From the NCBI RefSeq assembly GCF_041915215.1, contig NZ_JAYSBV010000012.1: 64,000 nt of DNA; one strand, 5' to 3'. The stretch is from Zoogloea sp. (lineage in GTDB: Bacteria > Pseudomonadota > Gammaproteobacteria > Burkholderiales > Rhodocyclaceae). How positions within the stretch are numbered: the stretch's first letter is position 1; each line of letters starts with the position of its first letter. This document shows positions 17,917 to 36,417 of the stretch, one piece after another. Under the pieces are notes generated by a model. It made no database searches. It saw nothing but the letters and a program-made list of their open reading frames with translations, and had not been told where the DNA came from. Position numbers and translations under genes: made by a program.

Positions 17917-18738
17917 ATGCCCCAAGGACAGGCCATGAACAAGCCCGCCATCATCACCCCCGACCCCTGGCAGCGCCTGCAAAGCCTCACCCGCGCCCGA
18001 CTCGCCCTGGGCCGGGCCGGGGTCAGCCTGCCCACCCGCGAAGTGCTGCGCTTTGGCACCGCCCACGCCCAGGCCCGGGATGCCGTCCACCAGGCCCTGG
18101 ATGTGGAAGGCCTGCAGCAAGAACTGCGGGCCAGCGGCTTCAAGCCCCTGCACGTGCATAGCCAGGCGCCCGACCGGGTCACCTACCTGCGCCGCCCGGA
18201 CTGGGGGCGCAGCCTGGCGCCCGCGAGTGCCGATACCCTGGGCGCCATCGCCCCCCAGGCCTGGCCCCGCCCTCCGGCACTGGCCATCGTGGTGGCCGAC
18301 GGGCTCTCGTCCCTCGCCACCCGCAGCCACGCCCAACCCCTGCTCCAGGCCCTGCTGCCGTACTTTCCGGATCTGCGCGAGATGCCGGTGGTGATCGCCA
18401 CCCAGGCCCGGGTCGCCCTGGGCGATGAAATCGGCCACCTGCTGCGGGCCGAACACGTGGTGGTGATGATCGGCGAACGCCCCGGGCTCTCATCCCCCGA
18501 CAGTCTGGGCCTCTACCTCACCGCCGCGCCCCGCCCGGGGCTGACCGACGCTTACCGGAACTGCATCTCCAACGTGCGCCCGGAAGGGCTCAACTACCCG
18601 GAAGCCGCCCGCAAGCTGGCCTTTCTGATCGCCGGCGCCCGCCGCCTGGGGCGTACCGGCGTGGATCTGAAGGACGACAGCGACGCCCCCGCCCTGGCTG
18701 CCGACACCCCAGAAACGCCCCTGCTGGCCAGCACCTGA
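17917..18738 (+). CDS. eutC: ethanolamine ammonia-lyase small subunit
   Basis: Follows eutB by 20 nt. Typical EutC length and conserved core (VVIATQARVALGDEIG...VVMIGERPGLSSPDSLG). Confidence 0.85.
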   Translation: MPQGQAMNKPAIITPDPWQRLQSLTRARLALGRAGVSLPTREVLRFGTAHAQARDAVHQALDVEGLQQELRASGFKPLHVHSQAPDRVTYLRRPDWGRSLAPASADTLGAIAPQAWPRPPALAIVVADGLSSLATRSHAQPLLQALLPYFPDLREMPVVIATQARVALGDEIGHLLRAEHVVVMIGERPGLSSPDSLGLYLTAAPRPGLTDAYRNCISNVRPEGLNYPEAARKLAFLIAGARRLGRTGVDLKDDSDAPALAADTPETPLLAST

Positions 18739-18802
18739 CACACCACATTTGCCCCCCTCGCCCGCCTTTTTTGATGCTTTGCCCTTTTTGAAGGAGAACA
18801 CC

Positions 18803-19666
18803 ATGATCCGCCCCGCCCTGCGTCCCCTCTCCGCCCTGATCGCCCTCGCCTGTCTGGGCGCCGCCGGCAGCAGCCGTGCCGCCGACGCCCCCGCCGATGC
18901 GCCCGCATCGGCCTGGACGGTGCCGGTGAGTGTGAGTCTGGTGAGCGATTACATCTTCCGGGGCCAGTCCCAGACCTGGGGCAAGCCGGCCCTGCAGCTG
19001 AGCGTGGAAGCCGACCACGCCTCCGGCGCCTATGTGGGCTTTGCCGCCTCCAATGTCTCCAGCCACTGGCTGCCCGGTGCCACTGTGGAAACCGACTTTT
19101 TCGGCGGCTTCCGGGGCAAACTCTCCGAGCCGGTGGGCTACGACGTGGGCCTGATCTACTACGCCTACCCGGGCGCCGACTGGAAGGATTCCTGGTTTGA
19201 TGGCTACAACAAGGGCAACAGCCTCAACACCGCCGAGGCCTATGTCTCGATCAGCTACGACTGGCTGAGCTTCAAGACCGGCCGCACCCTCACCGAATAC
19301 TTTGGCTGGAGCACCAACAATTCCCCGGTAGCGGGTGGCTTCAACGGCAACCCGGCGGCCGGCGTCACCGGCAGCACCCGGGGTTCGTATTTTTATGAAC
19401 TGAACGCCAGCAAGGACGTGGCCGAAGGCTGGAACCTGAGCGGCCAGATCGGGCGCCAGGTGATTGCCCACGCTACCGGGCTGGACATCACCTATTACAA
19501 GCTGGGCCTCACCCGCGCCCTGCCCGACGGCTGGAGCGCCGGAGCCTTCTACTCCGCCTCCAGCCAGCCCAAGGCTTACGACCGCTTCCTGAGCCTGGAC
19601 AACGGCCACTCGGAATCCAACATCGCCCGCAACAAGGTATTCGTGAGTCTGAGCAAGGCGTTCTGA
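18803..19666 (+). CDS. outer-membrane beta-barrel protein (TIGR02001-like conserved hypothetical porin)
   Basis: Signal peptide MIRPALRPLSALIALACLGAAGSSRA. Alternating amphipathic beta strands and a C-terminal aromatic residue (…KAF). RBS AAGGAGA. Confidence 0.55.
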   Translation: MIRPALRPLSALIALACLGAAGSSRAADAPADAPASAWTVPVSVSLVSDYIFRGQSQTWGKPALQLSVEADHASGAYVGFAASNVSSHWLPGATVETDFFGGFRGKLSEPVGYDVGLIYYAYPGADWKDSWFDGYNKGNSLNTAEAYVSISYDWLSFKTGRTLTEYFGWSTNNSPVAGGFNGNPAAGVTGSTRGSYFYELNASKDVAEGWNLSGQIGRQVIAHATGLDITYYKLGLTRALPDGWSAGAFYSASSQPKAYDRFLSLDNGHSESNIARNKVFVSLSKAF

Positions 19667-20122: not shown

Positions 20123-20893
20123 ATGAAGGCCGTGATCCTCGCGGGTGGCCTGGGCACCCGTCTTAGCGAAGAAACCGTCTCCCGCCCCAAGCCCATGGTG
20201 AACATCGGGGGGCGTCCCATCCTGTGGCACATCATGAAGATCTACTCCAGTCATGGCATCCATGACTTCGTGATCTGCTGCGGCTACATGGGCTACGTGA
20301 TCAAAGAGTATTTCGCCAACTACTTCCTGCACATGTCGGACGTCACCTTCGACATGAGCAACAACCAGATGGAAATCCACGAGCACCACGCCGAGCCGTG
20401 GCGCATCACCCTCGTGGATACCGGCGACCAGACCCAGACCGGCGGCCGCCTGGCCCGGGTGAAGCAGTACGTGAAGAACGAAGAGATGTTCTGCTTCACC
20501 TACGGCGACGGGCTGGCCGACATCGATGTGCGGGCCGAAATCGACTTCCACCGACGCCACGGCAAGCCCGCCACGGTGGCCGCCGTCCAACCCCCGGGGC
20601 GCTTCGGCTCGCTCCAGCTGGACGGGCCCGATGTGAGCGCGTTTGTCGAAAAGCCCCTGGGCGACGGCGGCTTCATCAACGGCGGCTTTTTCGTGCTCAA
20701 CCCCGGAGTGCTGGATCTGATCGACGGCGATCACAGCGTCTGGGAAGGCGACGTGCTCGCCCGCCTGATCGAACGCCACGAGCTGGCCGCCTTCCAGCAC
20801 AACGGCTTCTGGCGCCCCATGGACACCCTGCGGGACAAGTCCTACCTCGAAGAACTCTGGAACACCGGGAGCGCCCCATGGAAAACCTGGTGA
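20123..20893 (+). CDS. rfbF: glucose-1-phosphate cytidylyltransferase
   Basis: MKAVILAGGLGTRLSEET nucleotidyltransferase motif. About 256 aa. RBS AAGGAG. Confidence 0.9.
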   Translation: MKAVILAGGLGTRLSEETVSRPKPMVNIGGRPILWHIMKIYSSHGIHDFVICCGYMGYVIKEYFANYFLHMSDVTFDMSNNQMEIHEHHAEPWRITLVDTGDQTQTGGRLARVKQYVKNEEMFCFTYGDGLADIDVRAEIDFHRRHGKPATVAAVQPPGRFGSLQLDGPDVSAFVEKPLGDGGFINGGFFVLNPGVLDLIDGDHSVWEGDVLARLIERHELAAFQHNGFWRPMDTLRDKSYLEELWNTGSAPWKTW

Positions 20894-22014
20894 CGCCTCT
20901 TGTAGATCCGGGCTTCTGGGCCGGGCGGCGGGTATTTCTCACCGGCCACACCGGCTTCAAGGGCAGCTGGCTCGCCCTGTGGCTGCACCAGATGGGCGCA
21001 GAGGTGCAGGGCTATGCCCTCGCCCCGCCCAACAGCCCCAATCTGTTTGCCCTGGCGGGCATCAGCGAGCTGCTCCACAACCGGATCGGCGATCTGCGCG
21101 ACGGTGCTCACCTGCGGGCCTGCCTCACCAGCTTCGCCCCGGAAGTGGTGCTCCACCTGGGTGCCCAGGCGCTGGTGTCGGAAGGCTATGCCGACCCGGT
21201 GGGCACCTTCGCCACCAATGTCCAGGGCACCGTGAACCTGCTCGAAGCCGTGCGCTACTGCCCCAGCGTGGGTGCCGTGGTGGTGGTGAGCAGCGACAAG
21301 TGCTACGAAAACCGCGAATACACCGCCACCGACCGGGGCTATCACGAAGATGACCCCATGGGCGGCTACGACCCCTATTCGGCCAGCAAGGGCTGCACCG
21401 AACTGGTCGCCTCTGCCTACCGGCGCTCGTTTCTGCTGCAACGGGGCGTGCCCCTGGCCAGCGCCCGGGCCGGCAACGTGATCGGTGGCGGCGACTGGAG
21501 CCCTGCCCGGCTGGTGCCGGACGTGCTCGCTGCCTTCAGCGCCGGCCGCCCGGTGCTGCTGCGCAACCCGGACGGCGTGCGCCCCTGGCAGCACGTGCTC
21601 GAACCCCTGGCCGGCTACCTGGCCCTGGCCCAGCGCCTGCACCAGGAAGGCGCCCCCTGGGCCGAAGGCTGGAACTTTGGCCCCGACCCGGCGGATGCCC
21701 GGAGCGTGGGCTGGGTGGTGGAACACCTGGCCCGGGCCTGGGGCCCGGATGCCTGCTGGGACAAGGGCGATGCCCCCATCCATGAAGCTGGCACCCTGCG
21801 CCTGGATTGCCACAAGGCCCACACCCGCCTGGGCTGGCAGCCCCGCTGGGACACCGCCACCGCCCTCGACCGCAGCCTGGCCTGGTTCCGGGCCTGGCAA
21901 CAGGGCGCCGACATGCGCCAGTACAGCCGCGCCGAGATCGACGCCTACTGCGACGCTCCCGGCCTGGCCCCCACCGCCCCCACCCTCCACGGAGACACAT
22001 CATGCCCGGTCTGA
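20878..22014 (+). CDS. rfbG: CDP-glucose 4,6-dehydratase
   Basis: SDR extended family with [14 protein letters not shown] Rossmann motif. About 378 aa. Overlaps rfbF by 16 nt. Confidence 0.85.
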
Positions 22015-23369
22015 TCCGCTACGCCCTGCGCCCCGACGCGTCTGGCCAATGCCAACTGAACCTGCCCGAACTGGCCGGCCAGGATGTGGAAATCCTGGTG
22101 CGCCCGCGCCAGCCCGACAGCAGCGACACCCCCTGGCGCGCCGGGCGGGACAGCGTGCAGCCCTCGGGCAAGGTAATCGGCGAACCCGAAAAGAACGCCA
22201 TGATCGAAGCCGCCCTGGATGGCTGGCTCACCACCGGGCGCTTCAACGATGCGTTTGAGGAGCGCCTCGCCCGCTTTGTCGGGGTGCCCTACGCCCTCAC
22301 CGTGAATTCCGGCTCCTCGGCCAATCTGGTGGCCTTCACCACCCTGACCTCGCCCCAGCTGGGCGAACGGGCGATCCGCCCGGGGGATGAAGTCATCACC
22401 GTGGCCGCCGGCTTCCCGACCACCGTGTATCCCATCATCCAGAACGGGGCGATCCCGGTGTTCGTGGATGCCCGGCTGCCCGACTACAACATCGACGTGG
22501 CCATGCTGGAAGCGGCCCTCAGCCCCCGCACCAAGGCCATCATGGTGGCCCACACCCTGGGCAACCCCATTGATCTGGACACGATTTGCGCCTTTGCCCA
22601 GGCCCACAAGCTGTGGCTGATCGAAGACTGCTGCGATGCCCTCGGCTCCCGCTGGAAAGGCCGCCGGGTGGGGAGCTTCGGGGATCTGGCCACCCTGTCC
22701 TTCTACCCCGCCCACCACATCACCATGGGCGAAGGGGGCGCGGTGCTGACCGCCAACCCGGAGCTCAAGCGGATTGCCGAATCCTTCCGCGACTGGGGGC
22801 GGGACTGCTGGTGCAAGACCGGCTGCGACAACACCTGCGGCAAGCGCTTTGGCTGGCAGCAGGGCCGCCTGCCCGCCGGCTACGACCACAAATACACCTA
22901 CAGCCATGTGGGCTACAACCTCAAGATCACCGACATGCAGGCCGCCTGCGGGCTGGCCCAGCTGGATCGGCTGGAAGACTTCATCGCCGCCCGCAAGCGC
23001 AACTTCAACCACCTGAAGGCGGCCCTGGCCGATTGCACCGACTTTTTGATCCTGCCCGAAGCCACCCCGGGCAGCGATCCGGCGTGGTTCGGCTTCCCCA
23101 TCACCCTCAAGCCTGAAGCCGGGGTGAACCGGGTGGATCTGGTCCAGTACCTGGATCAGCACAAAATCGGCACCCGGCTGCTGTTTGCCGGCAACCTGAT
23201 CCGCCAGCCGGCCATGGCCGGGCGGGATTACCGGGTGATCGGCACCCTGCCGGTGGCCGACCAGATCATGCGCGACACCTTCTGGATCGGCGTGTGGCCC
23301 GGCCTCAGCCGGGAGCAGCTGGACTATGCCGTGCATCACATCAAGACCTTCCTGGGAGTCGAATTATGA
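22002..23369 (+). CDS. rfbH: CDP-6-deoxy-D-xylo-4-hexulose 3-dehydrase (E1, PMP-dependent, DegT/AHBA family)
   Basis: [10 protein letters not shown]...[12 protein letters not shown]-terminal signature of RfbH/DdhC. Start codon uncertain; the ATG at 22002 gives 455 aa and overlaps rfbG by 13 nt. Confidence 0.8.
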
Positions 23370-24862
23370 GCACCAAGCCCCTCATGGTGTTTGAAATGGC
23401 CAACAACCACATGGGCGACCTGGGCCACGGCCTGGCCACCATCCGCGCCCTGCGCGAGGCCTGCACCGGCTTCGAGGCCGATTTCGACTTCGCCTTCAAG
23501 CTCCAGTACCGGGATCTGGACACCTTCATCCACGCCTCGGTGCGCGGGCGCGAAGACGTGAAGTACGTGAAGCGCTTTGAAGAAACCCGGCTGAGCGACG
23601 CTTCCTTTCAGGAACTGGTGCGGGAAATGCGCGACAACGGCTTTCAAACCGTATGCACACCCTTCGACGAGCCCTCGGTGGACAAGATCGAAGCCCACGC
23701 CATCGAGAGCATCAAGGTCGCCAGCTGCTCCTTCACCGATTGGCCCCTGCTGGAGCGCATCGCCCAGAGCAACAAGCCGGTGATCGCCTCCACCGCCGGC
23801 GCGACGCTGGAAGAGATCGACAACGTGGTGAGCTTCTTCCTGCACCGCCACAAGCAGCTCACCCTGATGCACTGCGTGGCCGAATACCCGACCCCGGACG
23901 CCAGCCTGCAGGTGAATCAGATCGCCCTGCTCCAGGCCCGCTACCCGGACTGCCGGATCGGCTACTCCACCCACGAATCCCCCGACAACACCCTGGCGGT
24001 GGCCCTGGCCGTGGCCAAGGGCGCCCGGGTGTTCGAGAAGCATGTGGTGCTGCCCACCGCCCGCTACCCGGCCAATGCCTACTCGGCCAACCCGGCCCAG
24101 ATCCGGGCCTGGCTGGAAAGTGCGCGCCGGGCCCTGGCCATCTGCGGCAGCGCCGACCGCTACCAGCCCTCCCGCGCCGAAGAAGCCAGCCTGCACAGCC
24201 TGCGCCGGGGGGTGTTTGCCACCCGCCCCATTCCTGCCGGCACCCAGCTGACCCGGGACATGATCGAGTTTGCCTTCCCGCCGGTGGAAGGCCAGCTCAC
24301 CGCCAACGCGTGGTCCAAGTACAGCCAGTTCCGCGCCACCCAGGACATTCCTGCCGGCACCCCGGTGCTGCACATGGATCTGGCCGAAAGCCACCTGCGC
24401 AGCCAGGTGATGGGCATCGTTCAAGACGTGAAGAAGCTGCTCAAGGCCGCCCATGTGGTGATTCCGGGCAAGTCGGAACTGGAGATTTCCCACCACTTCG
24501 GGCTGGAGCGCTTTGACGACTTCGGGCTCACCATGCTCACCGTGGTGAACCGGGAATACTGCAAGAAGCTGCTGGTGCTGCTGCCGGGCCAGACCCACCC
24601 CGAGCAATACCACCTCAAGAAGGAAGAAACCTTTGTGGTGGTGCACGGCGAACTCACCCTGTGGCTCGATGGCGAAGAACGCCTGGCCCACGCCGGCGAC
24701 GTGATCACCGTGAACCGGGGCGTGCGCCACCGCTTTTACACCCGCGTGGGCGCGGTGTTCGAGGAGATTTCCTCCACCCACGAGCCCAACGACTCCTACT
24801 ACACCGACCCGGCCATTGCGCGGAACACCCAGCGCAAGACCTGGCTCACCTACTGGATGTAA
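23366..24862 (+). CDS. NeuB-family (sialic-acid-synthase-like) PEP-condensing enzyme with SAF domain, fused to a C-terminal cupin
   Basis: NeuB signatures [44 protein letters not shown] domain [17 protein letters not shown]. An extra roughly 140-aa cupin ([23 protein letters not shown]). ATGA overlap with rfbH. Confidence 0.65.
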
Positions 24863-24880: not shown

Positions 24881-26704
24881 ATGCGCCTTGCCGACTGGAT
24901 CATGCAGCGCCTCGCCGCCGAAGGGGTGCGCCACGTTTTCACCCTGCCCGGGGGCGGTGCCATGCATCTGAACGATGCCTTGGCCTGCGAAACCCAGCTT
25001 ACCCCAGTGCCCGGCCACCACGAACAGGCCTGCGCCATTGCTGCCGAGGCCTGCGGGCGCAGCGGCCCCCCGGGCTTTGGCGTGGTGCTGGTGACCACCG
25101 GGCCGGGGGCCACCAATGTGGTGACGCCCGTGGCCGGGGCGTGGATAGACTCGGTGCCCCTGCTGGTGATTTCTGGCCAGGTGAAGCGGGCCGATCTGCT
25201 CAATGGCCGTCCCCTGCGCCAGACCGGCGTGCAGGAGGTGGACATCATCAGCATGGTGCGCGGCATCACCAAATACGCGGTCACCGTCACCGACCCCCTC
25301 ACCATCCGCCAGCACCTGGAACAGGCCCTGTACCGGATGCGCCATGGCCGGCCCGGCCCGGTCTGGCTGGATATTCCGTTGGACGTGCAGGCTGCCCCCA
25401 TCGAACCCGAACAGCTCCCCGGCTGGAGCGCCCCCGAGCTGGACAGCCCCCTGCCCGGTCACACCCTGAGCGCCATTGCCGGGCTGCTCCAGAAATCCCG
25501 CCGCCCGCTGATTCTGGCGGGCCACGGGGTGCGTCTGGCCGGCGCGGCCAAGGACTTCCGGCAACTGGTGGACGCCCTCGGGATTCCCGCCGTCACCACC
25601 TGGAACGCCCTGGACCTGCTCCCCTGGGAACACCCCCTCAACCTGGGCCGCCCCGGCGTGGTGGCCGCCCGGGCCGCCAATTTTGCGGTGCAGAACTGCG
25701 ACCTGCTGATCGCCATTGGCAGCCGGCTGGACCCCATCATCACCGCCTACAACCCCAAGGGCTTTGCCCGGGAGGCACGCAAGGTGGTGGTGGATGTGGA
25801 CCCCCACGAACTGGCCCGCCTCGCCCAGCAAGACATGCCCATCGACCACGCCCTGGCCCTGGATGCGGGCGACTTCATCCGGGGGCTGGAAGTGGCCACT
25901 CGCAGCCTGAACCTGGATCAGCACGAAGCCTGGCGGGTGCGCTGCCGGGGCTGGAAGACCCGCTATCCGCTCAACGAAACCCCGCGCTTCCCCAGCGAAG
26001 GCCCCATCGGCCACGCCCATTTTGTGGCGGCCCTCTCGGAGGCGGCCCCGCCGGATACCCTCATCAGCACCGGCAGTTCGGGGCTGGCGGTGGAGTTTTT
26101 CTATGCGGGCTTCAAGAACAAGGAAGGGCAGCGCTGCTTCCTCACTTCCGGGCTCGGGGCCATGGGCTACGGCCTGCCCGCAGCGATTGGCGCCAGCCTG
26201 GGCCAGGACAAGCAAGCCTCCCTGGCGGTGGAGTCCGATGGGAGCCTGCAGCTCAACCTGCAGGAACTCGCCACCCTGGTGGCCCAACGCCTGCCGGTGT
26301 GCCTGTTCATCATGAACAACGGGGGCTATGCATCGATCCGCAACACCCAGCGCAACTACTTTGCCGGGCGCTATCTGGCGAGCGGCCCCCAATCCGGCCT
26401 GCACATGCCCGAACTGGGCCCCCTCGCCACCGCCTACGGGCTGCCCTACATGCAGATCAGCAACTGCCGAAATCTGGCCCAGCAACTGCGCGAAGCGCAA
26501 AACCTGCCCCGCCCCTGCCTGATCGACGTGCGCCTGATTCCCGATGAAACCCTCGCCCCCAAGTGCGCCGCGATTCCCCGGCCCGACGGTTCGATTGTTT
26601 CCATGCCGCTCGAAGACATGAGCCCCCTGCTGCCCCTGGAAACCCTCCAGCGGGAAATGCTGGTGCCGCTCCTGCCCGCATCGCTGGAAGCCCCCCGTTC
26701 CTGA
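24881..26704 (+). CDS. thiamine-diphosphate-dependent acetolactate-synthase-like enzyme (YerE-type sugar two-carbon branching enzyme candidate)
   Basis: ALS/TPP family architecture, 607 aa, with a GDG-like TPP region. Embedded in the CDP-sugar operon, as yerE is in the yersiniose cluster. Confidence 0.7.
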   Translation: MRLADWIMQRLAAEGVRHVFTLPGGGAMHLNDALACETQLTPVPGHHEQACAIAAEACGRSGPPGFGVVLVTTGPGATNVVTPVAGAWIDSVPLLVISGQVKRADLLNGRPLRQTGVQEVDIISMVRGITKYAVTVTDPLTIRQHLEQALYRMRHGRPGPVWLDIPLDVQAAPIEPEQLPGWSAPELDSPLPGHTLSAIAGLLQKSRRPLILAGHGVRLAGAAKDFRQLVDALGIPAVTTWNALDLLPWEHPLNLGRPGVVAARAANFAVQNCDLLIAIGSRLDPIITAYNPKGFAREARKVVVDVDPHELARLAQQDMPIDHALALDAGDFIRGLEVATRSLNLDQHEAWRVRCRGWKTRYPLNETPRFPSEGPIGHAHFVAALSEAAPPDTLISTGSSGLAVEFFYAGFKNKEGQRCFLTSGLGAMGYGLPAAIGASLGQDKQASLAVESDGSLQLNLQELATLVAQRLPVCLFIMNNGGYASIRNTQRNYFAGRYLASGPQSGLHMPELGPLATAYGLPYMQISNCRNLAQQLREAQNLPRPCLIDVRLIPDETLAPKCAAIPRPDGSIVSMPLEDMSPLLPLETLQREMLVPLLPASLEAPRS

Positions 26705-26727: not shown

Positions 26728-27888
26728 ATGAGCCTCGCCTGCCGGCTGTGTGACCAGCCCCTGTTCCCCGACCCGCTGCTGTGCCAGCACCACATGCCCG
26801 CCGCCGCCCAGGAGCTGCCCACCGCCGCCACCCTGAGCGCCGATGGGGGGGTGAGTCTGGCCCTGCACCAGTGCAGCGCCTGCGGCGTGGTCCAGCTCAC
26901 CAACCCACCGGTGCCCTATTACCGGGACGTGATCCGCGCTGCCGGGCTCTCGGCGGAGATGCGCGCCTTCCGCCTCCAGCAGTTTGGCGCCTGGGTGGCC
27001 GGGCACGACCTCGCCGGCAAGCCGGTGCTGGAAGTGGGCTGCGGCCAGGGGGAATACCTGGCCCTGCTGCGCGAGGCCGGCGTGGATGCGTGGGGCCTGG
27101 AGCACCGGGCCGCCTCGGTGGCCCACTGCCAGACCCAGGGCCTGCAGGTCTTGCAGGGCTTCATGGAAGGCCCTGAAACCCGCTTCGCCGGGCCGGGCAT
27201 CCCGGGCCACTTCGACGGCTTTGCGATTCTCAATTTTCTGGAACACATCCCCGCCGCGCACCGAACCCTGGCCGGCATCGCCGCCCACCTGAGCCCGGGG
27301 GCCAGCGGGCTGGTGGAAGTGCCCAATTTCGACATGATCCTGAAGGCCGGGCTGTTTGCCGAGTTCATCCCGGATCATCTGCACTACTTCACCCAGGCCA
27401 CCCTCACCGGCCTGCTGGAGCGCAGCGGTTTCGAGGTGCTGGAGTGCCGGCCCGAATGGCACGATTACGTGCTCTCGGCCACGGTGCGCAAGCGCCAGCC
27501 CCTGGATCTGTCCAGCCTCAACCAGCGCCAGCACGCCCTGGCCGACGAATTCCGCCGCTTTCTGGCCGGCTTTGCGCCGGGCCGGGTGGCGATCTGGGGC
27601 GCTGGCCACCAGGCCCTGGCCCTCATCAGCCTGATGGACATCGCCCCCCACATCCGCTACGTGCTGGATTCGGCCCCCTTCAAGCAGGGGCGTTACACCC
27701 CGGCCACCCACCTGCCCATCGTGCCCCCCGAGCGGCTGGCCGAGGGCGAGGTGGATGCGGTCATCGTGCTCGCCGCCAGCTATTCGGACGAAGTGTTGCG
27801 CACCCTGCGGGCGCGCCACGGCAGCCGCTTTCGCACCGCTGCCCTGCGTGGCGAGCACCTGGTCTGCGATCCGGAGCCCCAGCCATGA
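26728..27888 (+). CDS. sugar C-methyltransferase (TylC3-like; Zn-ribbon + class I SAM MTase + C-methyltransferase C-terminal domain)
   Basis: N-terminal Cys-rich CRLCDQP...CQHH...CSACG. SAM motif VLEVGCGQGEY. C-terminal Rossmann-like VAIWGAGHQALALISL domain. Confidence 0.7.
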   Translation: MSLACRLCDQPLFPDPLLCQHHMPAAAQELPTAATLSADGGVSLALHQCSACGVVQLTNPPVPYYRDVIRAAGLSAEMRAFRLQQFGAWVAGHDLAGKPVLEVGCGQGEYLALLREAGVDAWGLEHRAASVAHCQTQGLQVLQGFMEGPETRFAGPGIPGHFDGFAILNFLEHIPAAHRTLAGIAAHLSPGASGLVEVPNFDMILKAGLFAEFIPDHLHYFTQATLTGLLERSGFEVLECRPEWHDYVLSATVRKRQPLDLSSLNQRQHALADEFRRFLAGFAPGRVAIWGAGHQALALISLMDIAPHIRYVLDSAPFKQGRYTPATHLPIVPPERLAEGEVDAVIVLAASYSDEVLRTLRARHGSRFRTAALRGEHLVCDPEPQP

Positions 27889-28442
27889 ATGCGCCACCTT
27901 CAAGCCCCGTCACCCCGGACGCCCTGGAGGCCGCCATTGCCACCCTGCAGGCCGCCGTGGGCTCGGCCCAGGCGGGGCTGCCCGAGCCGGTGTTCCAGCT
28001 GGTCAGCAGCCTGACCCCGCTCATCAATGTGGATCTGCTGATCCACGACGAACACGGTCGCTGCCTGCTCACCTGGCGCCACGATGCCTTCTACGGGCCA
28101 GGCTGGCACATTCCGGGGGGCATCATCCGCTTCAAGGAAGCCGCCGCCCAGCGCATTGCCGCCGTGGCCGACCTGGAGCTGGGCTGCTGCGTCACGTTCG
28201 CACCCCTGCCCATCGCCCTGCACGAAATCACCAACCCGAACCGGGACGTGCGCGGCCATTTCATCTCGCTGCTGTACTCCTGCCGCCTGGCCAGCCCCCC
28301 CGACCCGGGCCGGGCCTTTGATCCGGCCAGCCCCCGGGCAGGGGACTGGGCCTGGCACACGGGCAGCCCGGACAACCTGATCCACCAGCAGCACATCTAC
28401 CGCCCCTACATCGACAACCCCCTTGCCGGAGTCTGGTCATGA
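27885..28442 (+). CDS. NUDIX hydrolase, GDP-mannose mannosyl hydrolase (Gmm/NudD)-like NDP-sugar hydrolase
   Basis: Modified Nudix box GGIIRFKEAAAQRIAAVADLELG, alignable to Gmm GGRVQKDETLEAAFERLTMAELG. ATGA overlap with the methyltransferase. Confidence 0.55.
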   Translation: MNAPPSSPVTPDALEAAIATLQAAVGSAQAGLPEPVFQLVSSLTPLINVDLLIHDEHGRCLLTWRHDAFYGPGWHIPGGIIRFKEAAAQRIAAVADLELGCCVTFAPLPIALHEITNPNRDVRGHFISLLYSCRLASPPDPGRAFDPASPRAGDWAWHTGSPDNLIHQQHIYRPYIDNPLAGVWS

Positions 28443-29527: not shown

Positions 29528-30568
29528 ATGTCCCCCGCCCTGCTTGCCGCCCCACTAAACCCGTTTGCCGACTGGGCCGCCCTGCGTGGCGCCCGGATCT
29601 TCATCACCGGCGGCACCGGCCTGTTCGGCCACTGGCTGCAGCCCCTGCTCTGCCGGGCCAACCAAACCCACGGACTGGGGCTGCAGCTCACGGTACTGAG
29701 CCGCGACCCGGCGCGCTTTCTGGCCGCCCATCCGGAACTGGCCGATGATACGGCGCTCAGCTTCATCGCCGGGGATGTGCGCGACTTTGCCTTCCCGGCA
29801 GGGGAATTCAGCCATGTGATCCACGGGGCGGCCACCGCCGCTGCCGCCACCTTCCACCGCCAGGAAGACGCCCTCACCAAGTTCGACACCACCTATGCCG
29901 GTACCCGCCGGGTGCTGGATTTCGTGGCCGAACGGGGTATCCCGCGCCTGCTGGTGCTGGGCTCGGGCGCTTACTACGGCCCCCTCCAGGCGGGCCACAC
30001 GGCCTACCCGGAGGACTACCCGGTCGCCCCCGAGCCCGGCAATCTGGACGTGGCCATTGGCCATGCCAAGCGGGCGGCGGAGTTCCTGTGCGCGGCCTAC
30101 GCGGCCCGCCACGGGTTTTCGTATTCGGTGGCGCGCTGCTTTTCCTTTGTCGGCCCCCATCTGCCCCTGGATCTGCACTACGCCATCGGCAACTTCATTC
30201 GCGATGCGCTGACGGCGCCCGCCATCATCGTGGGGGGCGACGGCAGCCCGATCCGCTCCTATCTGTATCTGGGCGACCTGATGGTCTGGCTGCTGACCGT
30301 GCTCACCCGGGGCGCCCCGGGGCAGGCCTACAACGTGGGCTCGGATGAAGCGATCAGCATCGGCGAACTGGCCCGGCGGGTGGGCGCGCTGTTGGCGCCC
30401 GGCAAGCCGGTACACATCCTGGGCCAGCCGAACGGGCTGCCTACCCGCAACATCTACGTGCCGGACATCCGCCGCGCCCGGGCGGAACTGGGGCTGGACG
30501 TACTCACCCCGCTGGATGATGCGATCCGCATCACCGCCCGCCATGCCGCGCCCCAAAGGCCGAATTAG
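29528..30568 (+). CDS. NAD-dependent epimerase/dehydratase (SDR) family protein, candidate NDP-4-keto-sugar reductase/epimerase
   Basis: ITGGTGLFGHWL glycine-rich NAD-binding motif. About 346 aa. Confidence 0.7.
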   Translation: MSPALLAAPLNPFADWAALRGARIFITGGTGLFGHWLQPLLCRANQTHGLGLQLTVLSRDPARFLAAHPELADDTALSFIAGDVRDFAFPAGEFSHVIHGAATAAAATFHRQEDALTKFDTTYAGTRRVLDFVAERGIPRLLVLGSGAYYGPLQAGHTAYPEDYPVAPEPGNLDVAIGHAKRAAEFLCAAYAARHGFSYSVARCFSFVGPHLPLDLHYAIGNFIRDALTAPAIIVGGDGSPIRSYLYLGDLMVWLLTVLTRGAPGQAYNVGSDEAISIGELARRVGALLAPGKPVHILGQPNGLPTRNIYVPDIRRARAELGLDVLTPLDDAIRITARHAAPQRPN

Positions 30569-30694: not shown

Positions 30695-31807
30695 ATGAGC
30701 ATTGCCCTAACCCCTGACGCCGGCCTCAACCCCGGCGAAGCCGCGAAACGCAACGACCTGGCGCAACGCAAGCCCTACATCGCCGCCAAGCTGGCGCGCA
30801 TCACCGAGATGGAGGAACGCGGCGAGATCAGCCCCATCATCCGGCTGGAAAAGAGCTATCTGTGCAACTTCACTTGCACCCATTGCTCTGCCGAGTACTA
30901 CATGGACCGGCACCTTAAAAAGGTTTTCCAGATCGTGGATGAGCGCCGCAAGATTGATCTGGACGACATTCGCCGGATCTCCCGCGAAGCCGACGAACTG
31001 GGCCTTGCCCGCTTCGTGATTACCGGGGGCGAGCCCCTGGTGATGAAGGACTTCGATGAGGTGGTGGCCGCCATCGACCCGGATCGCCATTACGTGATCA
31101 CCGACACCAATGGCTGGTTCCTGGATCTGGCCAAGGCCAAGCACCTGAAATCCATCGGCGTTGAAAAAGTCCAGCTCTCGCTGGACAGCATGGTGGAAGC
31201 CGATCACGACGCCTTCCGCAACAAGCCCGGCTCCTACAAGCGGGTGATGCGCGCCATCGACGCGGCCCGGGAGGCCGGCCTCAACCTGATTCTCTCCACC
31301 GTGCTGGTCAAGGGCCGGGCCAAAACCGACGAGTTCCGCCAGATGTGCGAATTCGCCAAGGCCAAGGGCATCGGGCTGTATGTGTCTTACGCCAAGCCCA
31401 CCGGCTCGTGCACCGAACACCCGGAGTTCGTGATCGAGAAGGAAGACGCCGACATCGTGCGGGAGCTGGAAAAGGAATATCCGGTATTCACCCACATGAC
31501 CCCTTCCTACGGCTCCTTCAAGGGCTGCATCACGGTGAAGGGCATCATCACCATCACCTCCACCGCCGAGGTGACGCCCTGCCCCTACATTGATTTTTCG
31601 CTCGGCAACCTGCGCGAGACGCCCCTCAAGGAAATTCTCGCCCGGGGCATGCGCAATCCCTGGCTCGGCCCCCACCGGCCCGACTGCCTGATCGGCGAAG
31701 ACCCCCAGTTCATCAAGATCCACACCGAACGCACCCAGGGCCGCACCCATCTGCCGGTGCCCTGGGGCCAGGGTTTTTCGGATCACGACAGCCTCCAGGA
31801 CGAGTGA
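30695..31807 (+). CDS. radical SAM enzyme (CX3CX2C; C-terminal Cys-containing auxiliary region)
   Basis: CNFTCTHC cluster motif. GGEPLV SAM-binding motif. C-terminal CPYID...C residues. Confidence 0.75.
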   Translation: MSIALTPDAGLNPGEAAKRNDLAQRKPYIAAKLARITEMEERGEISPIIRLEKSYLCNFTCTHCSAEYYMDRHLKKVFQIVDERRKIDLDDIRRISREADELGLARFVITGGEPLVMKDFDEVVAAIDPDRHYVITDTNGWFLDLAKAKHLKSIGVEKVQLSLDSMVEADHDAFRNKPGSYKRVMRAIDAAREAGLNLILSTVLVKGRAKTDEFRQMCEFAKAKGIGLYVSYAKPTGSCTEHPEFVIEKEDADIVRELEKEYPVFTHMTPSYGSFKGCITVKGIITITSTAEVTPCPYIDFSLGNLRETPLKEILARGMRNPWLGPHRPDCLIGEDPQFIKIHTERTQGRTHLPVPWGQGFSDHDSLQDE

Positions 31808-31876: not shown

Positions 31877-32683
31877 ATGTTTGCCACCGCCGACACCCTG
31901 CCCGACCTGTCCCTGTTTGATGAAAGTGGCCGCTGCCTGCCCAAGGGCCTGAACGCCCCGGCCCACGCCCGCAGCCGTCGCTACTTCCGCCTCCAGCCGC
32001 CGCGTCTGGACATGCCCAATCTGCACGCCCGGCTGCGCCAGCACCTGGGCGCCGGCCAAGGCATCAGCACCCAGGATTTCTGCACCCGGGTGGACGCCCT
32101 GCGCGCCAACCTGCAGGCAGACCCCCACCTGGCCGCCATTACCCGGGGCATCGGGATTCCCTTCATCCTGCCCCGGCTGGAGCACCCTGATGTGGGTACC
32201 GTACTGGACAAGCGCTACCTGCCGGCCATTGCCAGCGCCTTTGGCCAGCGCTTCCCGGATTACCGCTTCACCAGCCACCACACCCGCCCCCTGGCCGGGC
32301 TGTTGGGGGTACTGGAAGGCAGTCGCCACGAACGCCTGATCGAAGCCAGCCGGGAACGGGAGGTGGTGGGCCTGTACTTCCCTTGCCTCTCGGAATACTC
32401 GGTGCCCGCCGCCCTCGAACAGGTGGCCCGGCTGCCCGACAACTTTGTGCTGGCCGGCGGCTATGACACCAGTGCCGCCCTGGTGGCCTGCCCCGAGCTG
32501 CTGCTGCGCACCGACGGTTACCCGCCCCTGCTGTGGCTTTCGGCCCTGGCCGAAAACGGCAAACCCGGCATTGGCTACCACTACGAAGCCTACGGCTACA
32601 ACCTGACCTTCAACCGGCGCCCCCACCTGGGCATGGCCGCCGAGTACTGGAGCCACGGCCTGAGCGTGCTGGAAACCGTCTGA
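31877..32683 (+). CDS. hypothetical protein
   Basis: Co-directional ORF inside the island with no recognisable motif. Start uncertain. Confidence 0.35.
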   Translation: MFATADTLPDLSLFDESGRCLPKGLNAPAHARSRRYFRLQPPRLDMPNLHARLRQHLGAGQGISTQDFCTRVDALRANLQADPHLAAITRGIGIPFILPRLEHPDVGTVLDKRYLPAIASAFGQRFPDYRFTSHHTRPLAGLLGVLEGSRHERLIEASREREVVGLYFPCLSEYSVPAALEQVARLPDNFVLAGGYDTSAALVACPELLLRTDGYPPLLWLSALAENGKPGIGYHYEAYGYNLTFNRRPHLGMAAEYWSHGLSVLETV

Positions 32684-32725: not shown

Positions 32726-35700
32726 ATGTCCAGCACGCTCCTGCGTCAGCTCTACGGCGCCCGCCGCCATCCCTATTACGTGATGGCCCCGGACTACCGG
32801 CGCACCTCCGCCGGCATCCGGGTCATGCACCAGCTCTGCCATGCCCTGCGCCTGAGCGGGGAGGAGGCCTGGATCGTGACCCAGCAGACCCACCCGGGCC
32901 TGGACACGCCCCTCCTGACCGATGAAATCCGCGCCGCCCACCAGAAAGCCGGCCTGGTGCCCATCGCCATTTACCCGGAAGTGGTGGGCCGCAACCCGCT
33001 CAACGGACGCGTGGTGGTGCGCTACCTGCTCAACCGCCCGGGCATGCTGGGCGAAACCCCGGCCTACGGCGCCGATGATCTGATTTACGTATACGAACCC
33101 GAGCTGGCCACCCACAGCGAGCGGGTGGATGGGGTGCTGCACATGCCCTCCATCGACACCCGGCTGTTCCATAACCGGGACAACCCGGACGAGGGCCGAC
33201 GCTCGGGATGCTGCATCTACTTTGGGCGCTACACCGGCGGCCCCCAGGAATACGCCGAACTGGCCGCCCGCTGCACCACGATCACCAGCGACTTTCCGGC
33301 CAGCCGGGAAGCACTGGCCGCCCTGCTGCGCCGCTCCGAATGGCTCTACTGCTTCGAAAACACCGCCCTGTCGATGGAAGCCCGCCTGTGCGGCTGCCCG
33401 GTGGTGATCCTGCCCGGCCCCATGTTCCGGGCCGAGAGCTTCTTTGGCCGGGAGCAGGGCTTTGAGCAAGGGGTGGCCTTCTCCGAAGAGCCCGCCGCCC
33501 TCGCCCAGGCCCGGGCCAGCGTGGGGCGCATCCCCGCCCTCTACGCCCGGCTGGAAGAAAAGTTCTGGAGCGGGCTGGACAGCCTGATCGAACAGACCCA
33601 GACCCGGGCCCAGGAAGAAGCCGCCCGCATCGGCGAAGAAGACCCGGCCCACCCCCGGAGCAGCAGCCAGGACCCGGAATACGCCACCTGGCGCGCCCGC
33701 CAGAGCCTGCAGGAAGTGGATGCCGAGGTGCTGGCCGAACGCATGGTGCAGCGCTGGACCCACCGCCCGGGCATCCACCTGATCCTCGAACTGCGCGCCG
33801 GCCAGGAGCCCCTGCTGGCCGACACCCTGGACAGCCTGGCCGCCCAGCTCTACCCCGAGTGGCTGCTGACCGTGGTGACGGTGCTGGACAAGCCCCCGGT
33901 GGCCGATGAGATTCCGAATCTCCAGTGGCTGAGCCTGCGCGACATCACCCACACCGATTACGTCATCGACGAAATGGCCAAGGCCTCCCCGGGCCAGTGG
34001 GTCGCCCGCATCGTGCCCGGCCTGACCCTGGAACCCCAGGCCCTGCAGGTGGCAGCGGATTACATCAATGCCCGCCCGGCCTGGCGCCTGATCTACACCG
34101 ACGAAGACACCCTGGAAGCAGACGGCAGCTACAGCCAACCCCTGTTCAAGCCCGATTTCAACCTGGACCTGCTGCGCGCCCAGGCCTATTTCGGCAGCCT
34201 GGTGCTGGTGGAAAAGCAGGCCCTGGTGGCCGCCGGCAGCTATGGCCCGGGCCAATACCCCTGGGCCGAAAACTATGACCTGAGCCTGCGGGTGCTGGAA
34301 CAGCAGGGCGAGGCGAGCATCGGCCACATCGACCAGATGCTCGTGCACCTGCATCGTCACAGCCCCCTCAGCCTCAACCCGGCCAGCGAAAAGGCCGCCC
34401 TGGAAGCCCATCTGGCCCGTTGCGGGCTGGAAGTGCGGGTACACGACAGCCCCCTGGCCGGCACCCGCCGGCTGGAACACCTGTGGCCCACCACGCCCCT
34501 GGTCAGCCTCATCATCCAGACCCGGGACCGGGAGGAATACCTGCGCCCCCTGCTGGACAGCCTGCGCGAACGCACCCGCTACCCGGCCTGGGAAGTGGTG
34601 CTGGTGGATAACGACAGCAGCGAGCACGACAGCCTCGCCTACCTGGCCGAGCTGCAGGCCGACCCGTTCTGGAGTGCCCGGCTGCGCGTCGTCCCCTGCC
34701 CGGGTGAGTTCAGCTACGCCCGGGGCGCCAACACCGGCGCCCGCCAGGCCCGGGGCGCCTATCTGATGTTCCTGGACAACGACATGCACATCGTTCAGGA
34801 CGAATGGCTGGACCGGCTGATGAGCCACGCCCAGCGCCCCGAGGTACTGATCGTGGGCCCGCGCCTGAGCTACCCGGAAACTGGCAAGGTACAGCAGACC
34901 GGCTGGGTGCTGGGCCTGCGGGGCAGTGCCGGCAGCCCCTGGGACAATGATCTCGAACTGGCCGCCCCCGGCTACATGGGGCGCGGGCTGTGCGATCAGA
35001 ACGTGGGCGCCATTGGCGGCTCGGCCCTGCTGATCCGCCAGACCGAATTTGCCCGGGTGGGCGGGATGGACGAGGTGAATTTCCCCCTCGCCCAAAGCGC
35101 GCTGGATCTGTGCCTGCGCGTTACCGGCGAAGGGGCCCCGGCGGGTGCCAAGATCGTCTGGACCCCCCACGCGATGCTGGTCCATTACGGCAGCGTTTCC
35201 CTCAAGGCCCGCCAGCGCAAGACCGAGGTGGCCCTGGCCGACCTGCTTGAAGCCCAGCGCGCCCACGATCAGGTGGTGGAGCGCTGGCTCCCCCGGCTGG
35301 CCCGGGACCCGGCCTATAACCGCCATCTGAGCTTGGTCAGCCCCTTCAAGCCCGAACATGTGATCCCCATGGACTGGGATCCGAACTTCCACGACCGGCC
35401 CCGCATTCTGGGCGTTCCGCTCACCGGCGGCGCTGGGGAATACCGGCTGCGCGCCCCCCTGCGCGCCCTGGCCCAACGGGGCCTGGCCCAGACCACCATC
35501 TGCGATCCACCCCGGGCCTTTACGGTGCGCATCCTGTCGCCAGTGGAAGTGGCCCGGGCCGCGCCGGACAGCCTGGTGCTGCACCAGCCCCTGGATGATG
35601 CCCAGAGCGACGCCCTCGCGGCCTACGCCCGCTTCGTCCCTGAGGTGAAGCGCATCGTGACCATGGATGACCTGATCACCGCCCTGCCCAAGAAGAACTG

Positions 35701-36394
35701 CTTTTATAAAAGCGGCTTCAAGGACGCCCGGGCCCGGCTGCGCCGCAACCTGGGCCTGGCAGACCGGCTGGTGGTGAGCACCCAGCCCCTGGCCGAGCTG
35801 TGCGCCGGGATGATCGACGATATCCGGGTGATGCCCAACGGGCTGGAAAGCGCACTCTGGCTCCCGGTTCAGCCGCCCCGCAAAGCCCGCCGCAAGCCCC
35901 GGGTGGGCTGGGCCGGCGCCCAACAGCACCAGGGCGACCTGGAACTGATTTACCCGGTGGTGGAAGCCCTGGCCGATGAGGTGGACTGGATTTTCATGGG
36001 CATGTGCCCGGACCCGCTCAAACCCTTCGTACGGGAAGCCCACGGCTTCGAGCTGAATTTCCGGGCCTATCCGGCAGCCCTCGCCCGGCTGGATCTGGAT
36101 CTGGCCATCGCGCCCCTGGAAATCCACGCCTTCAACGAAGCCAAGAGCAACCTGCGCCTGCTGGAATACGGGGCCATGGGCTGGCCCGTGGTGTGCACCG
36201 ACATCTACCCTTACCAGGACGCACCGGTGACCCGACTCCCCAACGATCCACAACGCTGGATCACCACCCTGCGCGAAATGCTGGCCGAACCCGAGGCCCT
36301 GGCCGCTGCGGGTCAGCAGCTACGCCAATGGGTTCTGGATCGTTACCTACTTGAAAACCTGCTGCCAGACTGGCTCTCCGCCTACGGCCCCTGA
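32726..36394 (+). CDS. large multidomain glycosyltransferase (unknown N-terminal region + two GT2 domains + C-terminal GT1/GT4-like domain)
   Basis: LVSLIIQTRD...VVLVDNDSS...FLDNDM (GT2 with DxD). An earlier GT2-like segment (LILELRAG...YTDEDT). C-terminal RVGWAGAQQHQGD...GWPVVCTDIYPY GT1-like segment. Ends 290 nt before fliC. Confidence 0.75.
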   Translation: MSSTLLRQLYGARRHPYYVMAPDYRRTSAGIRVMHQLCHALRLSGEEAWIVTQQTHPGLDTPLLTDEIRAAHQKAGLVPIAIYPEVVGRNPLNGRVVVRYLLNRPGMLGETPAYGADDLIYVYEPELATHSERVDGVLHMPSIDTRLFHNRDNPDEGRRSGCCIYFGRYTGGPQEYAELAARCTTITSDFPASREALAALLRRSEWLYCFENTALSMEARLCGCPVVILPGPMFRAESFFGREQGFEQGVAFSEEPAALAQARASVGRIPALYARLEEKFWSGLDSLIEQTQTRAQEEAARIGEEDPAHPRSSSQDPEYATWRARQSLQEVDAEVLAERMVQRWTHRPGIHLILELRAGQEPLLADTLDSLAAQLYPEWLLTVVTVLDKPPVADEIPNLQWLSLRDITHTDYVIDEMAKASPGQWVARIVPGLTLEPQALQVAADYINARPAWRLIYTDEDTLEADGSYSQPLFKPDFNLDLLRAQAYFGSLVLVEKQALVAAGSYGPGQYPWAENYDLSLRVLEQQGEASIGHIDQMLVHLHRHSPLSLNPASEKAALEAHLARCGLEVRVHDSPLAGTRRLEHLWPTTPLVSLIIQTRDREEYLRPLLDSLRERTRYPAWEVVLVDNDSSEHDSLAYLAELQADPFWSARLRVVPCPGEFSYARGANTGARQARGAYLMFLDNDMHIVQDEWLDRLMSHAQRPEVLIVGPRLSYPETGKVQQTGWVLGLRGSAGSPWDNDLELAAPGYMGRGLCDQNVGAIGGSALLIRQTEFARVGGMDEVNFPLAQSALDLCLRVTGEGAPAGAKIVWTPHAMLVHYGSVSLKARQRKTEVALADLLEAQRAHDQVVERWLPRLARDPAYNRHLSLVSPFKPEHVIPMDWDPNFHDRPRILGVPLTGGAGEYRLRAPLRALAQRGLAQTTICDPPRAFTVRILSPVEVARAAPDSLVLHQPLDDAQSDALAAYARFVPEVKRIVTMDDLITALPKKNCFYKSGFKDARARLRRNLGLADRLVVSTQPLAELCAGMIDDIRVMPNGLESALWLPVQPPRKARRKPRVGWAGAQQHQGDLELIYPVVEALADEVDWIFMGMCPDPLKPFVREAHGFELNFRAYPAALARLDLDLAIAPLEIHAFNEAKSNLRLLEYGAMGWPVVCTDIYPYQDAPVTRLPNDPQRWITTLREMLAEPEALAAAGQQLRQWVLDRYLLENLLPDWLSAYGP

Positions 36395-36417
36395 AAGGGC
36401 AGCCTACCCCAGCCACA

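Follow-up and report, generated by a model that had tools for sequence, protein, structure and literature searches.

TcaB9 of Micromonospora chalcea, KijD1 of Actinomadura kijaniata, MtmC and TylC3/EryBIII are C-3 methyltransferases of 4-ketosugars linked to deoxythymidine diphosphate (dTDP). C-methylation of 4-ketosugars carried by nucleoside diphosphates (NDP) is confined neither to dTDP nor to C-3: NovU and CloU methylate at C-5, the virenose of Coxiella burnetii involves a C-3 methyltransferase in a pathway thought to use a sugar linked to guanosine diphosphate (GDP), and the CDP-vinelose of Azotobacter vinelandii is a 3-C-methyl sugar linked to cytidine diphosphate (CDP). None of these cases is known to be combined with a branch installed by a thiamine diphosphate (ThDP)-dependent enzyme. 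We analysed a 64,000-nucleotide stretch of Zoogloea sp. DNA (the window; contig NZ_JAYSBV010000012.1 of assembly GCF_041915215.1) that carries the gene of a 386-residue, three-domain methyltransferase resembling TylC3, TcaB9 and KijD1. Unlike the actinomycete antibiotic clusters, which use dTDP-sugars, the window has this methyltransferase in a CDP-sugar pathway within a predicted flagellin glycosylation island of a Gram-negative bacterium. With a probability that we put at roughly 0.55, the protein is a C-methyltransferase of the TcaB9/KijD1/TylC3 fold, dependent on S-adenosylmethionine (SAM), whose part in a CDP-sugar pathway decorating flagellin is that of an optional tailoring enzyme.

Two other kinds of described system bear on this locus. 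Flagellin glycosylation islands are known from a-type Pseudomonas aeruginosa, P. syringae, Burkholderia, Aeromonas and Campylobacter, and those described use dTDP-, UDP- or CMP-sugars (viosamine derivatives, pseudaminic and legionaminic acids). The window shares with them a sugar operon and a large glycosyltransferase beside fliC-flaG-fliD-fliS, as well as tailoring genes that vary among close relatives, but it would use a CDP-3,6-dideoxyhexose/ThDP route. The second kind is the cluster for acyl-branched sugars, in which an aldolase makes a hydroxy-2-keto acid that a ThDP enzyme couples to CDP-4-keto-3,6-dideoxyglucose (PMC9306805). An alpha-keto-acid-forming aldolase sits at the same place in the erwiniose, caryophyllose and gastriose clusters, and the carboligases ErwE, MMAR_2332 and MyGE use C4-C8 hydroxy-keto acids from the neighbouring aldolase (PMC9306805). 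JanthE of Janthinobacterium sp. HH01 (PDB 8RPH) resembles YerE as a carboligase that accepts ketones; its ThDP motif, CDG, is unusual, and its physiological substrates are reported as unknown. Both JanthE and YerE accept pyruvate (PMC12188165, PMC12247030). The pathway in the window resembles these published clusters, including those of YerE, ErwE, MMAR_2332, MyGE and JanthE, in its rfbFGH genes, predicted YerE-like carboligase, adjacent putative 2-keto-acid maker and short-chain dehydrogenase/reductase (SDR) (PMC9306805, PMC12247030). It differs in its keto-acid supplier, apparently a NeuB-SAF-cupin fusion dependent on phosphoenolpyruvate (PEP) where the YerE and JanthE clusters have a pyruvate aldolase, and in extra tailoring, since window-type cassettes optionally add the TylC3-type methyltransferase, a NUDIX-like protein and a radical SAM/SPASM enzyme. 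Its probable target, flagellin, also differs from the lipopolysaccharide or lipooligosaccharide of the YerE and JanthE clusters. Our literature search returned no report of a CDP/ThDP-route sugar on flagellin, nor of this cassette.

The methyltransferase open reading frame (ORF) is a real gene. It opens with an ATG that has a GAGG 8 nt upstream, begins 23 nt after the end of the ThDP gene, and lies in a window of about 66% GC. A preliminary description of the DNA, made from the sequence alone, had picked out this ORF, its VLEVGCGQGEY motif and a three-part architecture of zinc ribbon, class I SAM domain and C-methyltransferase C-terminal domain. The motif is present at residues 100-110, and profile annotation bore out the second and third parts of the architecture. 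Methyltransf_23 matched the SAM domain (residues 91-239, E = 4e-17), and the C-methyltransferase C-terminal domain, Methyltransf_14 (PF08484), matched residues 274-362 with 56.5 bits against a cut-off of 23.5 (E = 3.8e-15); PF08484 was also found in 14/14 orthologues. The zinc ribbon is marked by four cysteines, C5, C8, C49 and C52, which are invariant in 51 orthologues and align with the cysteine pairs of KijD1 and TcaB9. Motif I of the SAM domain, E102-V-G-C-G-Q-G108, is likewise invariant among the orthologues.

We then compared the protein with solved structures. In a sequence search of the whole PDB, the full-length matches were only sugar C-3 methyltransferases: KijD1 (E = 1.5e-23), TcaB9 (about 2e-20) and MtmC (4e-14). 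A profile built from 14 orthologues improved these values to 1.8e-32, 6e-32 and 1.7e-27, respectively, the alignment spanning TcaB9 residues 13-398. Judged from such alignments, homology to the solved C-methyltransferases (1e-23 to 1e-32) is far beyond chance. An AlphaFold2 model built with the 51 orthologues reached a mean predicted local distance difference test score (pLDDT) of 94.8 and a predicted template-modelling score (pTM) of 0.86. When it was searched against the PDB with Foldseek, the 18 best matches were all KijD1, MtmC or TcaB9 (E = 8e-27 to 2.5e-23, identity 20-26%), and generic methyltransferases came next, at E >= 2.6e-11 and over the Rossmann domain only. The template-modelling (TM) score against KijD1, MtmC and TcaB9 was only 0.52-0.58, with a root-mean-square deviation of about 27 Å, so the placement of the domains relative to the crystal structures appears to differ; moreover, the stretch that links the SAM domain to the C-terminal domain is some 30 residues shorter in the window protein. 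All together, the three domains held in common (zinc ribbon, SAM-binding fold of class I, PF08484), the full-length alignment and the predicted fold support membership of the TylC3/TcaB9/KijD1 superfamily of sugar C-methyltransferases, and the kinship to TylC3-type enzymes claimed in the preliminary description is thus supported, with KijD1, TcaB9 and MtmC as the nearest solved relatives.

The titles of PDB entries name the TcaB9 mutants Y76F, H181N, Y222F, E224Q and H225N, which allowed the corresponding positions to be read off the alignment. The counterparts of TcaB9 H181, E224 and H225 are H173, D216 and H217, with Glu conservatively exchanged for Asp at the second position, and each of them is invariant in the 51 orthologues. 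TcaB9 Y76 and Y222 correspond to I69 and I214, with no conserved tyrosine at either position, so the substrate pocket probably differs from that of TcaB9; R70, next to I69, is invariant in the family. From the alignment, then, the acid-base machinery appears retained and the sugar pocket changed. In the C-terminal domain, the motif D314-S-A-P-F-K319-Q-G-R-x-T324-P is common with TcaB9 and KijD1 (D-T-T-P-x-K-Q-x-R-L-T-P), which we take to reflect retained NDP binding. The same domain was met in a different setting: the N-terminus of a radical SAM protein matches PF08484 at 13333-14571 of locus L029 and in 12 further loci, and this suggests that PF08484 is a reusable NDP-sugar-binding module.

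The neighbouring genes define the chemistry in which this enzyme would act (Table 1). RfbF, RfbG and RfbH each score above their NCBIfam equivalog cut-offs, and in RfbH a histidine replaces the aminotransferase lysine and a C-x-C-x7-C cluster is present, which we take to be hallmarks of E1. By these profile matches, RfbF, RfbG and RfbH form a genuine pathway from CDP-glucose to CDP-4-keto-3,6-dideoxyglucose, and stop/start overlaps tie the genes of the island into one operon. The CDP-sugar operon with a ThDP enzyme that had been proposed is therefore present. The ATGA overlap said to fuse the methyltransferase gene into the CDP pathway is also real, but its place is the 3' end of that gene (27885-27888), where the partner is the NUDIX-like ORF rather than a CDP-pathway gene; other ATGA overlaps occur between rfbH and the neuB-like gene (at 23366) and between the NUDIX and GT2 genes (at 28439). 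As to the emphasis on CDP rather than dTDP, the CDP context holds, but it is less unusual than was implied, since the GDP- and CDP-linked cases named above mean that a CDP-sugar as substrate of a C-methyltransferase is not unprecedented in principle.

Table 1. Genes and domains of the sugar island and the adjoining flagellar genes (positions in the window; residues of the methyltransferase in brackets).
Feature	Position	Strand	Basis or remark
rfbF, glucose-1-phosphate cytidylyltransferase	20123-20893	+	TIGR02623, 461.6 bits against 300; start taken as the Met opening the profile match
rfbG, CDP-glucose 4,6-dehydratase	20890-22014	+	TIGR02622, 444 bits against 278; probable GTG start overlaps rfbF stop
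rfbH (E1), CDP-6-deoxy-D-xylo-4-hexulose 3-dehydrase	22047-23369	+	NF011936, 719.8 bits against 423; start uncertain, ORF open from 21807
Putative NeuB-SAF-cupin fusion	23366-24862	+	Pfam NeuB, SAF, Cupin_2
YerE/JanthE-like ThDP-dependent carboligase (predicted)	24881-26704	+	Three TPP_enzyme domains; PDB matches
Methyltransferase, TylC3/TcaB9/KijD1-like	26728-27888	+	Pfam, homology, predicted fold
N-terminal 4-Cys zinc ribbon (residues 5-59)	26740-26904	+	Weak PF08421, Cys alignment (C5, C8, C49, C52)
Class I SAM-binding domain (residues 91-239)	26998-27444	+	Methyltransf_23; motif I E102-x-G104-C-G106-x-G108; putative catalytic H173, D216, H217
C-terminal domain (residues 274-362)	27547-27813	+	PF08484, alignments
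NUDIX-like protein, degenerate Nudix box	27885-28442	+	PF00293, 25.3 bits
GT2 glycosyltransferase, 357 aa	28439-29512	+	Pfam; only the window and few relatives have it
SDR-type NAD-dependent epimerase/reductase	29528-30568	+	PF01370, E = 1e-28
Radical SAM/SPASM enzyme	30695-31807	+	Pfam, NCBIfam
268-aa conserved protein	31877-32683	+	No Pfam or NCBIfam match
1222-aa protein, central GT2 domain	32726-36394	+	Pfam; candidate flagellin glycosyltransferase
fliC, 274 aa	36682-37506	+	Pfam
flaG	37584-38036	+	Pfam
fliD	38271-39644	+	Pfam
fliS	39670-40086	+	Pfam

The branch that the ThDP enzyme would install had been described as a C2 branch. Among PDB entries the enzyme matched JanthE best (8RPH, E = 2e-111), followed by PpYerE (5AHK, 1e-72) and then by acetolactate synthases, whose score is similar to that of PpYerE; it is thus predicted to be a YerE-like carboligase that accepts ketones, with JanthE as its closest solved relative. 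Its ThDP motif (nt 26234-26242, residues 452-454) reads S-D-G where JanthE has C-D-G and the canonical form is G-D-G. Among the ThDP orthologues, SDG is confined to one subclade (L089-L093, L095, L104, L105 and L153), and the others have GDG. Upstream of the carboligase gene, the NeuB/SAF part of the fusion protein matches PDB 3G8R, a structural-genomics entry, with 484 bits, and the cupin half shows a weak likeness to D-lyxose/mannose isomerases with its His and Glu metal ligands invariant; we read the protein as a homologue of PEP-dependent 3-deoxy-2-ulosonic-acid synthases fused to a metal-cupin. Enzymes of the NeuB family convert PEP and an aldose to a 3-deoxy-2-keto acid.

The JanthE locus itself (L169; Janthinobacterium sp. 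HH01, AMWD01000002.1 4131597-4153429) has the order rfbF-rfbG-rfbH-JanthE-SDR-acetaldehyde dehydrogenase-DmpG-type aldolase-SDR-GT and compares as an erwiniose-type cluster (PMC9306805). Because JanthE sits in such a cluster of rfbFGH, SDR, acetaldehyde dehydrogenase and DmpG aldolase genes, the analogy predicts that its physiological substrates are CDP-4-keto-3,6-dideoxyglucose and 4-hydroxy-2-oxovalerate. The NeuB-SAF-cupin holds the position that the aldolase has in JanthE- and erwiniose-type clusters, and the ThDP gene accompanied it, usually immediately downstream, in 36 of the 38 loci seeded on NeuB-cupin (see below). By this pairing and position, the branch is probably longer than C2, a longer acyl rather than an acetyl group, and the C2 assignment is not supported. 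The two genes lie 18 nt apart in the window; in L085 a 196-residue ORF with no Pfam match (13763-14353) stands between them, and it was found in 45 further loci and is absent from the window.

The flagellar context had escaped the preliminary description, as had the accessory status of the gene, its co-variation with NUDIX and radical SAM genes and the wide spread of the cassette. The island stops 288 nt short of fliC, with fliK following fliS (by Pfam), and the flagellin is short, with a central stretch of 48 residues rich in Ser, Thr and Ala. Homologues of the 1222-residue GT2 protein adjoin flagellin genes in Azoarcus sp. KH32C (L008) and in the metagenomic loci L089 and L090, where the flagellin-adjacent arrangement of the island recurs. 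With fliC-flaG-fliD-fliS directly downstream and this large GT2 protein at its end, the cluster is identified by its gene context as a flagellin glycosylation island, with a glycan predicted on flagellin. The intergenic region 36395-36681 contains a hairpin and T-run terminator at about 36420-36450, after the 1222-residue glycosyltransferase gene, and, before fliC, a sigma-28-like element, TAAAGTCT...CCGTAAAT; with these two signals between them, the sugar operon and fliC are probably transcribed separately.

We next examined how widely the methyltransferase is distributed and with what company. Exact copies were found only in SRA assemblies. Named relatives come closest, at 69-73% identity, in Rhodocyclaceae (Zoogloea, Aromatoleum, Azoarcus sp. 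KH32C, Thauera) and in Chromobacterium; their annotation goes no further than 'class I SAM-dependent methyltransferase'. C. violaceum and Azoarcus KH32C both retain the whole cassette, and in the latter flagellin genes again come after it. In a scan of one genome per species, at least 548 species have a relative of the methyltransferase; the best 80 of them, at 48-73% identity, include Nitrospirota, Planctomycetota, Elusimicrobia, Omnitrophota, Patescibacteria and archaea.

Loci seeded on the methyltransferase nearly always contained the ThDP, NeuB-cupin, RfbH, NUDIX and radical SAM genes. Since this set had been chosen through the methyltransferase, a second set was seeded on NeuB-cupin from metagenomes, giving 38 loci that extend at least 5 kb downstream and, among them, 27 that extend at least 7 kb. 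Presence or absence was scored by tblastn, and counts of loci per gene family are approximate, as the ORF caller miscalled genes, in the window too. Besides the ThDP gene, the 38 loci contained RfbH (25), the methyltransferase (22), radical SAM (19) and NUDIX (17) genes. The methyltransferase was present in 14 of the 27 longer loci. There, the radical SAM/SPASM gene occurred in 11/14 loci with the methyltransferase against 2/13 without it (Fisher p = 0.0018), and NUDIX was associated with it as well (p = 0.0063), whereas the ThDP gene, RfbH and SDR were not; these tests ignore kinship among the loci and are indicative only. In the ThDP and NeuB-cupin trees, loci that carry the methyltransferase are scattered among loci that lack it. 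Two sister flagellar islands, L089 and L090, share 87% DNA identity from rfbF to the exact 3' end of the ThDP gene (positions 5643-13197) and are unrelated beyond it: L089 continues with methyltransferase, NUDIX, B12-binding radical SAM, SDR and radical SAM/SPASM genes and a gene of unknown function, L090 with SDR, B12-binding radical SAM, GHMP kinase and split transketolase genes. The two islands thus show a clean swap of modules. The near-invariant core is the pair of NeuB-cupin and ThDP genes, usually with rfbFGH, and the methyltransferase is an accessory tailoring gene that opens the variable segment rather than part of the core.

Several other features of the island and its surroundings were recorded. 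The degenerate Nudix box of the NUDIX-like protein reads GGIIRFKEAAAQRIAAVADLELG; its nearest PDB match is GDP-mannose mannosyl hydrolase (E = 0.003), ATGA overlaps couple its gene to the methyltransferase and to the next GT2 gene, and across loci it usually adjoins the methyltransferase gene. The radical SAM/SPASM enzyme is nearest to MoaA and BlsE-type enzymes and occurs as two sequence types, which are about 80% and about 45% identical to the one in the window; the 268-residue protein is conserved in 23 related loci, always with the high-identity type. B12-binding radical SAM genes, candidate C-methylases, were found in L008 (8321-9991, between the ThDP and methyltransferase genes of Azoarcus), L089 (14943-16808) and L090 (16459-18111), and none was found in the window. 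Directly upstream of the island, 15095-19666 holds an amino acid permease-family gene (possibly an ethanolamine transporter), eutB, eutC and a Gcw_chp protein. This linkage was not seen in C. violaceum or Azoarcus and is probably coincidental; the eut operon was considered as a supplier of acetaldehyde and dropped, as eut is not linked to the cassette elsewhere.

What we observed of the gene (its fold, architecture, conserved residues, CDP-sugar neighbours, flagellar context and accessory status) can be joined into a pathway whose substrate, methylation site and order of steps we infer. RfbF, RfbG and RfbH would supply CDP-4-keto-3,6-dideoxy-D-glucose, and NeuB-cupin would condense PEP with an aldose to a 3-deoxy-2-keto acid. 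The JanthE/YerE-like enzyme would decarboxylate this acid and add the remainder to C4 of the ketosugar, leaving a long 4-C-acyl branch; an SDR (the product of 29528-30568 is a candidate YerF-like ketoreductase) would reduce the branch ketone, and GT2 enzymes would move the sugar onto flagellin. By analogy with TcaB9, the C-terminal domain of the methyltransferase would bind a CDP-linked keto intermediate and the Asp216-His217 dyad, with His173, would take a proton alpha to the ketone, the resulting enolate attacking the methyl group of SAM. The carbon methylated may be C3 or C5 of the ring of CDP-4-keto-(3,)6-(di)deoxyglucose, before branching; unlike the substrates of TcaB9, KijD1 and TylC3, the likely substrate would have no 3-OH or 3-NH2. 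Alternatively it may be C2' of the 4-C-acyl branch, after branching, when the only ketone would be C1' and C2' would be the former 3-deoxy methylene; C3 of the free keto acid seems a less likely site. The ThDP and NeuB genes are near-identical in loci with and without the methyltransferase, which speaks weakly for methylation after branching, or else at a position that the carboligase tolerates. L039 and L040, in turn, combine the methyltransferase with an NDP-hexose dehydratase and have no ThDP gene, which favours methylation of the ring. The 'two carbon branches' of the preliminary description are thus one outcome among several that are chemically equivalent and differ in whether the methyl group goes to C3 or C5 of the ring, to the side-chain C2' or to the keto-acid donor.

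A number of points weigh against this interpretation. The PF08421 profile of the zinc ribbon is below threshold in the window protein (residues 5-59, 13.2 bits against 31.3, E = 0.11), although it matches 14/14 members of the family, at best with E = 6.6e-8. Identity to the solved C-methyltransferases is just 20-26%, the two sugar-contacting tyrosines of TcaB9 are replaced by Ile69 and Ile214, and the orthologous group contains no characterised member. Among the ORFs of the island at 20-36 kb we found no E3 reductase (AscD/DdhD/RfbI), the normal partner of RfbH; the JanthE cluster likewise has no E3 gene, and the enzyme may be supplied from elsewhere in the genome. L039 and L040 carry the methyltransferase and NeuB-cupin with neither RfbH nor the ThDP gene, and the full pathway is therefore not obligatory for the methyltransferase; both still encode an NDP-hexose 4,6-dehydratase pathway, and the exceptional loci, to which L041 also belongs, are uninformative in that L039 is interrupted by an IS605-type transposase and antisense ORFs were called in the high-GC locus L041. 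The proposed pathway leaves the roles of the tightly linked NUDIX and radical SAM genes unexplained. Finally, the related branched sugar of R. palustris is O-methylated, not C-methylated (PMC9912281).

Among the alternatives, one keeps the C2 branch: the enzyme would methylate C3 (or C5) of the CDP-4-ketosugar and a yersiniose-type acetyl branch would then be added from pyruvate, giving a hexose with a methyl group and a C2 branch. The TylC3-type fold with its catalytic dyad, the CDP-4-keto-3,6-dideoxyglucose pathway and the acceptance of pyruvate by JanthE and YerE (PMC12247030, PMC12188165) are all compatible with it. With pyruvate as donor, however, the NeuB-cupin so constantly paired with the ThDP gene would be idle, and homologous clusters have a keto-acid-forming aldolase at the same position (PMC9306805). 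The near-identity of ThDP and NeuB genes across loci with and without the methyltransferase also speaks, weakly, against an altered acceptor for the ThDP enzyme, and we regard this route as improbable.

An O- (or N-) methyltransferase built on the TylC3-like scaffold and acting on a hydroxyl group once the CDP-sugar is complete, or almost so, seems no better placed. It would fit the loss of the pocket residues equivalent to Tyr76 and Tyr222, and the caryophyllose-like sugar of R. palustris is indeed 3-O-methylated, its cluster including a SAM methyltransferase (PMC9306805, PMC9912281). But all solved full-length relatives are C-methyltransferases, the general-base dyad and second histidine that would serve enolate formation are invariant, and RfbH removes the 3-OH in this pathway.

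Slightly less credible is the C-methylation of the free 3-deoxy-2-keto acid at C3, after its formation by NeuB-cupin and before coupling, in which case the protein would fall outside the NDP-sugar methyltransferases. Identical enolate chemistry would apply, the replaced tyrosines would be accounted for, and in L039 and L040 the methyltransferase accompanies NeuB-cupin despite the absence of RfbH and ThDP genes. The C-terminal domain and motif of enzymes that bind dTDP-sugars are, however, fully kept, the NDP-hexose dehydratase pathway persists in those same two loci, and the NeuB and ThDP genes hardly change whether or not the methyltransferase is there.

Equally doubtful is a nonulosonic-acid-like route, with the logic of the pseudaminic and legionaminic acid pathways (NDP-sugar tailoring, hydrolase, NeuB homologue), in which the CDP-sugar would be C-methylated at the 4-keto stage, the NUDIX protein would free the aldose, as its nearest match GDP-mannose mannosyl hydrolase releases a free sugar, NeuB-cupin would add PEP and the ThDP enzyme would act elsewhere: a CMP-transferase-like gene in the Magnetococcales locus L041 is in keeping with it, but the island of the window has no NeuA-type cytidylyltransferase, its transferases are GT2 and not Maf-type, and about half of the NeuB-cupin loci lack NUDIX, for which reason NUDIX as the source of free sugar for NeuB was ranked low.

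We thus return to the tailoring C-methyltransferase of a CDP-sugar pathway that decorates flagellin. The gene itself belongs, as a divergent member, to an ordinary and known type of enzyme, and the interest lies in the pathway, its breadth and the flagellar target, not in the fold. We tentatively extend this to the cassette as a whole, found in more than 500 species of many bacterial and some archaeal phyla: it may make an undescribed higher-carbon branched 3,6-dideoxyhexose, with a NeuB-derived polyhydroxyalkyl chain placed at C4 by a JanthE-like enzyme, a C-methyl group from SAM and radical-SAM/NUDIX tailoring, O-linked here to flagellin. This extension is a good deal less secure than the assignment of the methyltransferase itself.

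If the assignment is true, the TylC3/TcaB9 family, known mainly from actinomycete antibiotic sugars, would extend to a widespread CDP-sugar pathway for surface glycans. The 'unifying scheme' for acyl-branched sugars, of a ThDP enzyme and a keto-acid supplier, would gain NeuB-cupin as a supplier and flagellin as a target, and JanthE-like carboligases, which are of biocatalytic interest, would gain testable physiological substrates. Were the higher-carbon product also to hold, the island would yield a doubly C-branched sugar unlike any seen so far, and flagella would have their first example of a glycan made by the CDP/ThDP route. Natural pairs of islands, one carrying the methyltransferase gene and the other lacking it, offer an experiment to be read in the masses of their flagellin glycans.

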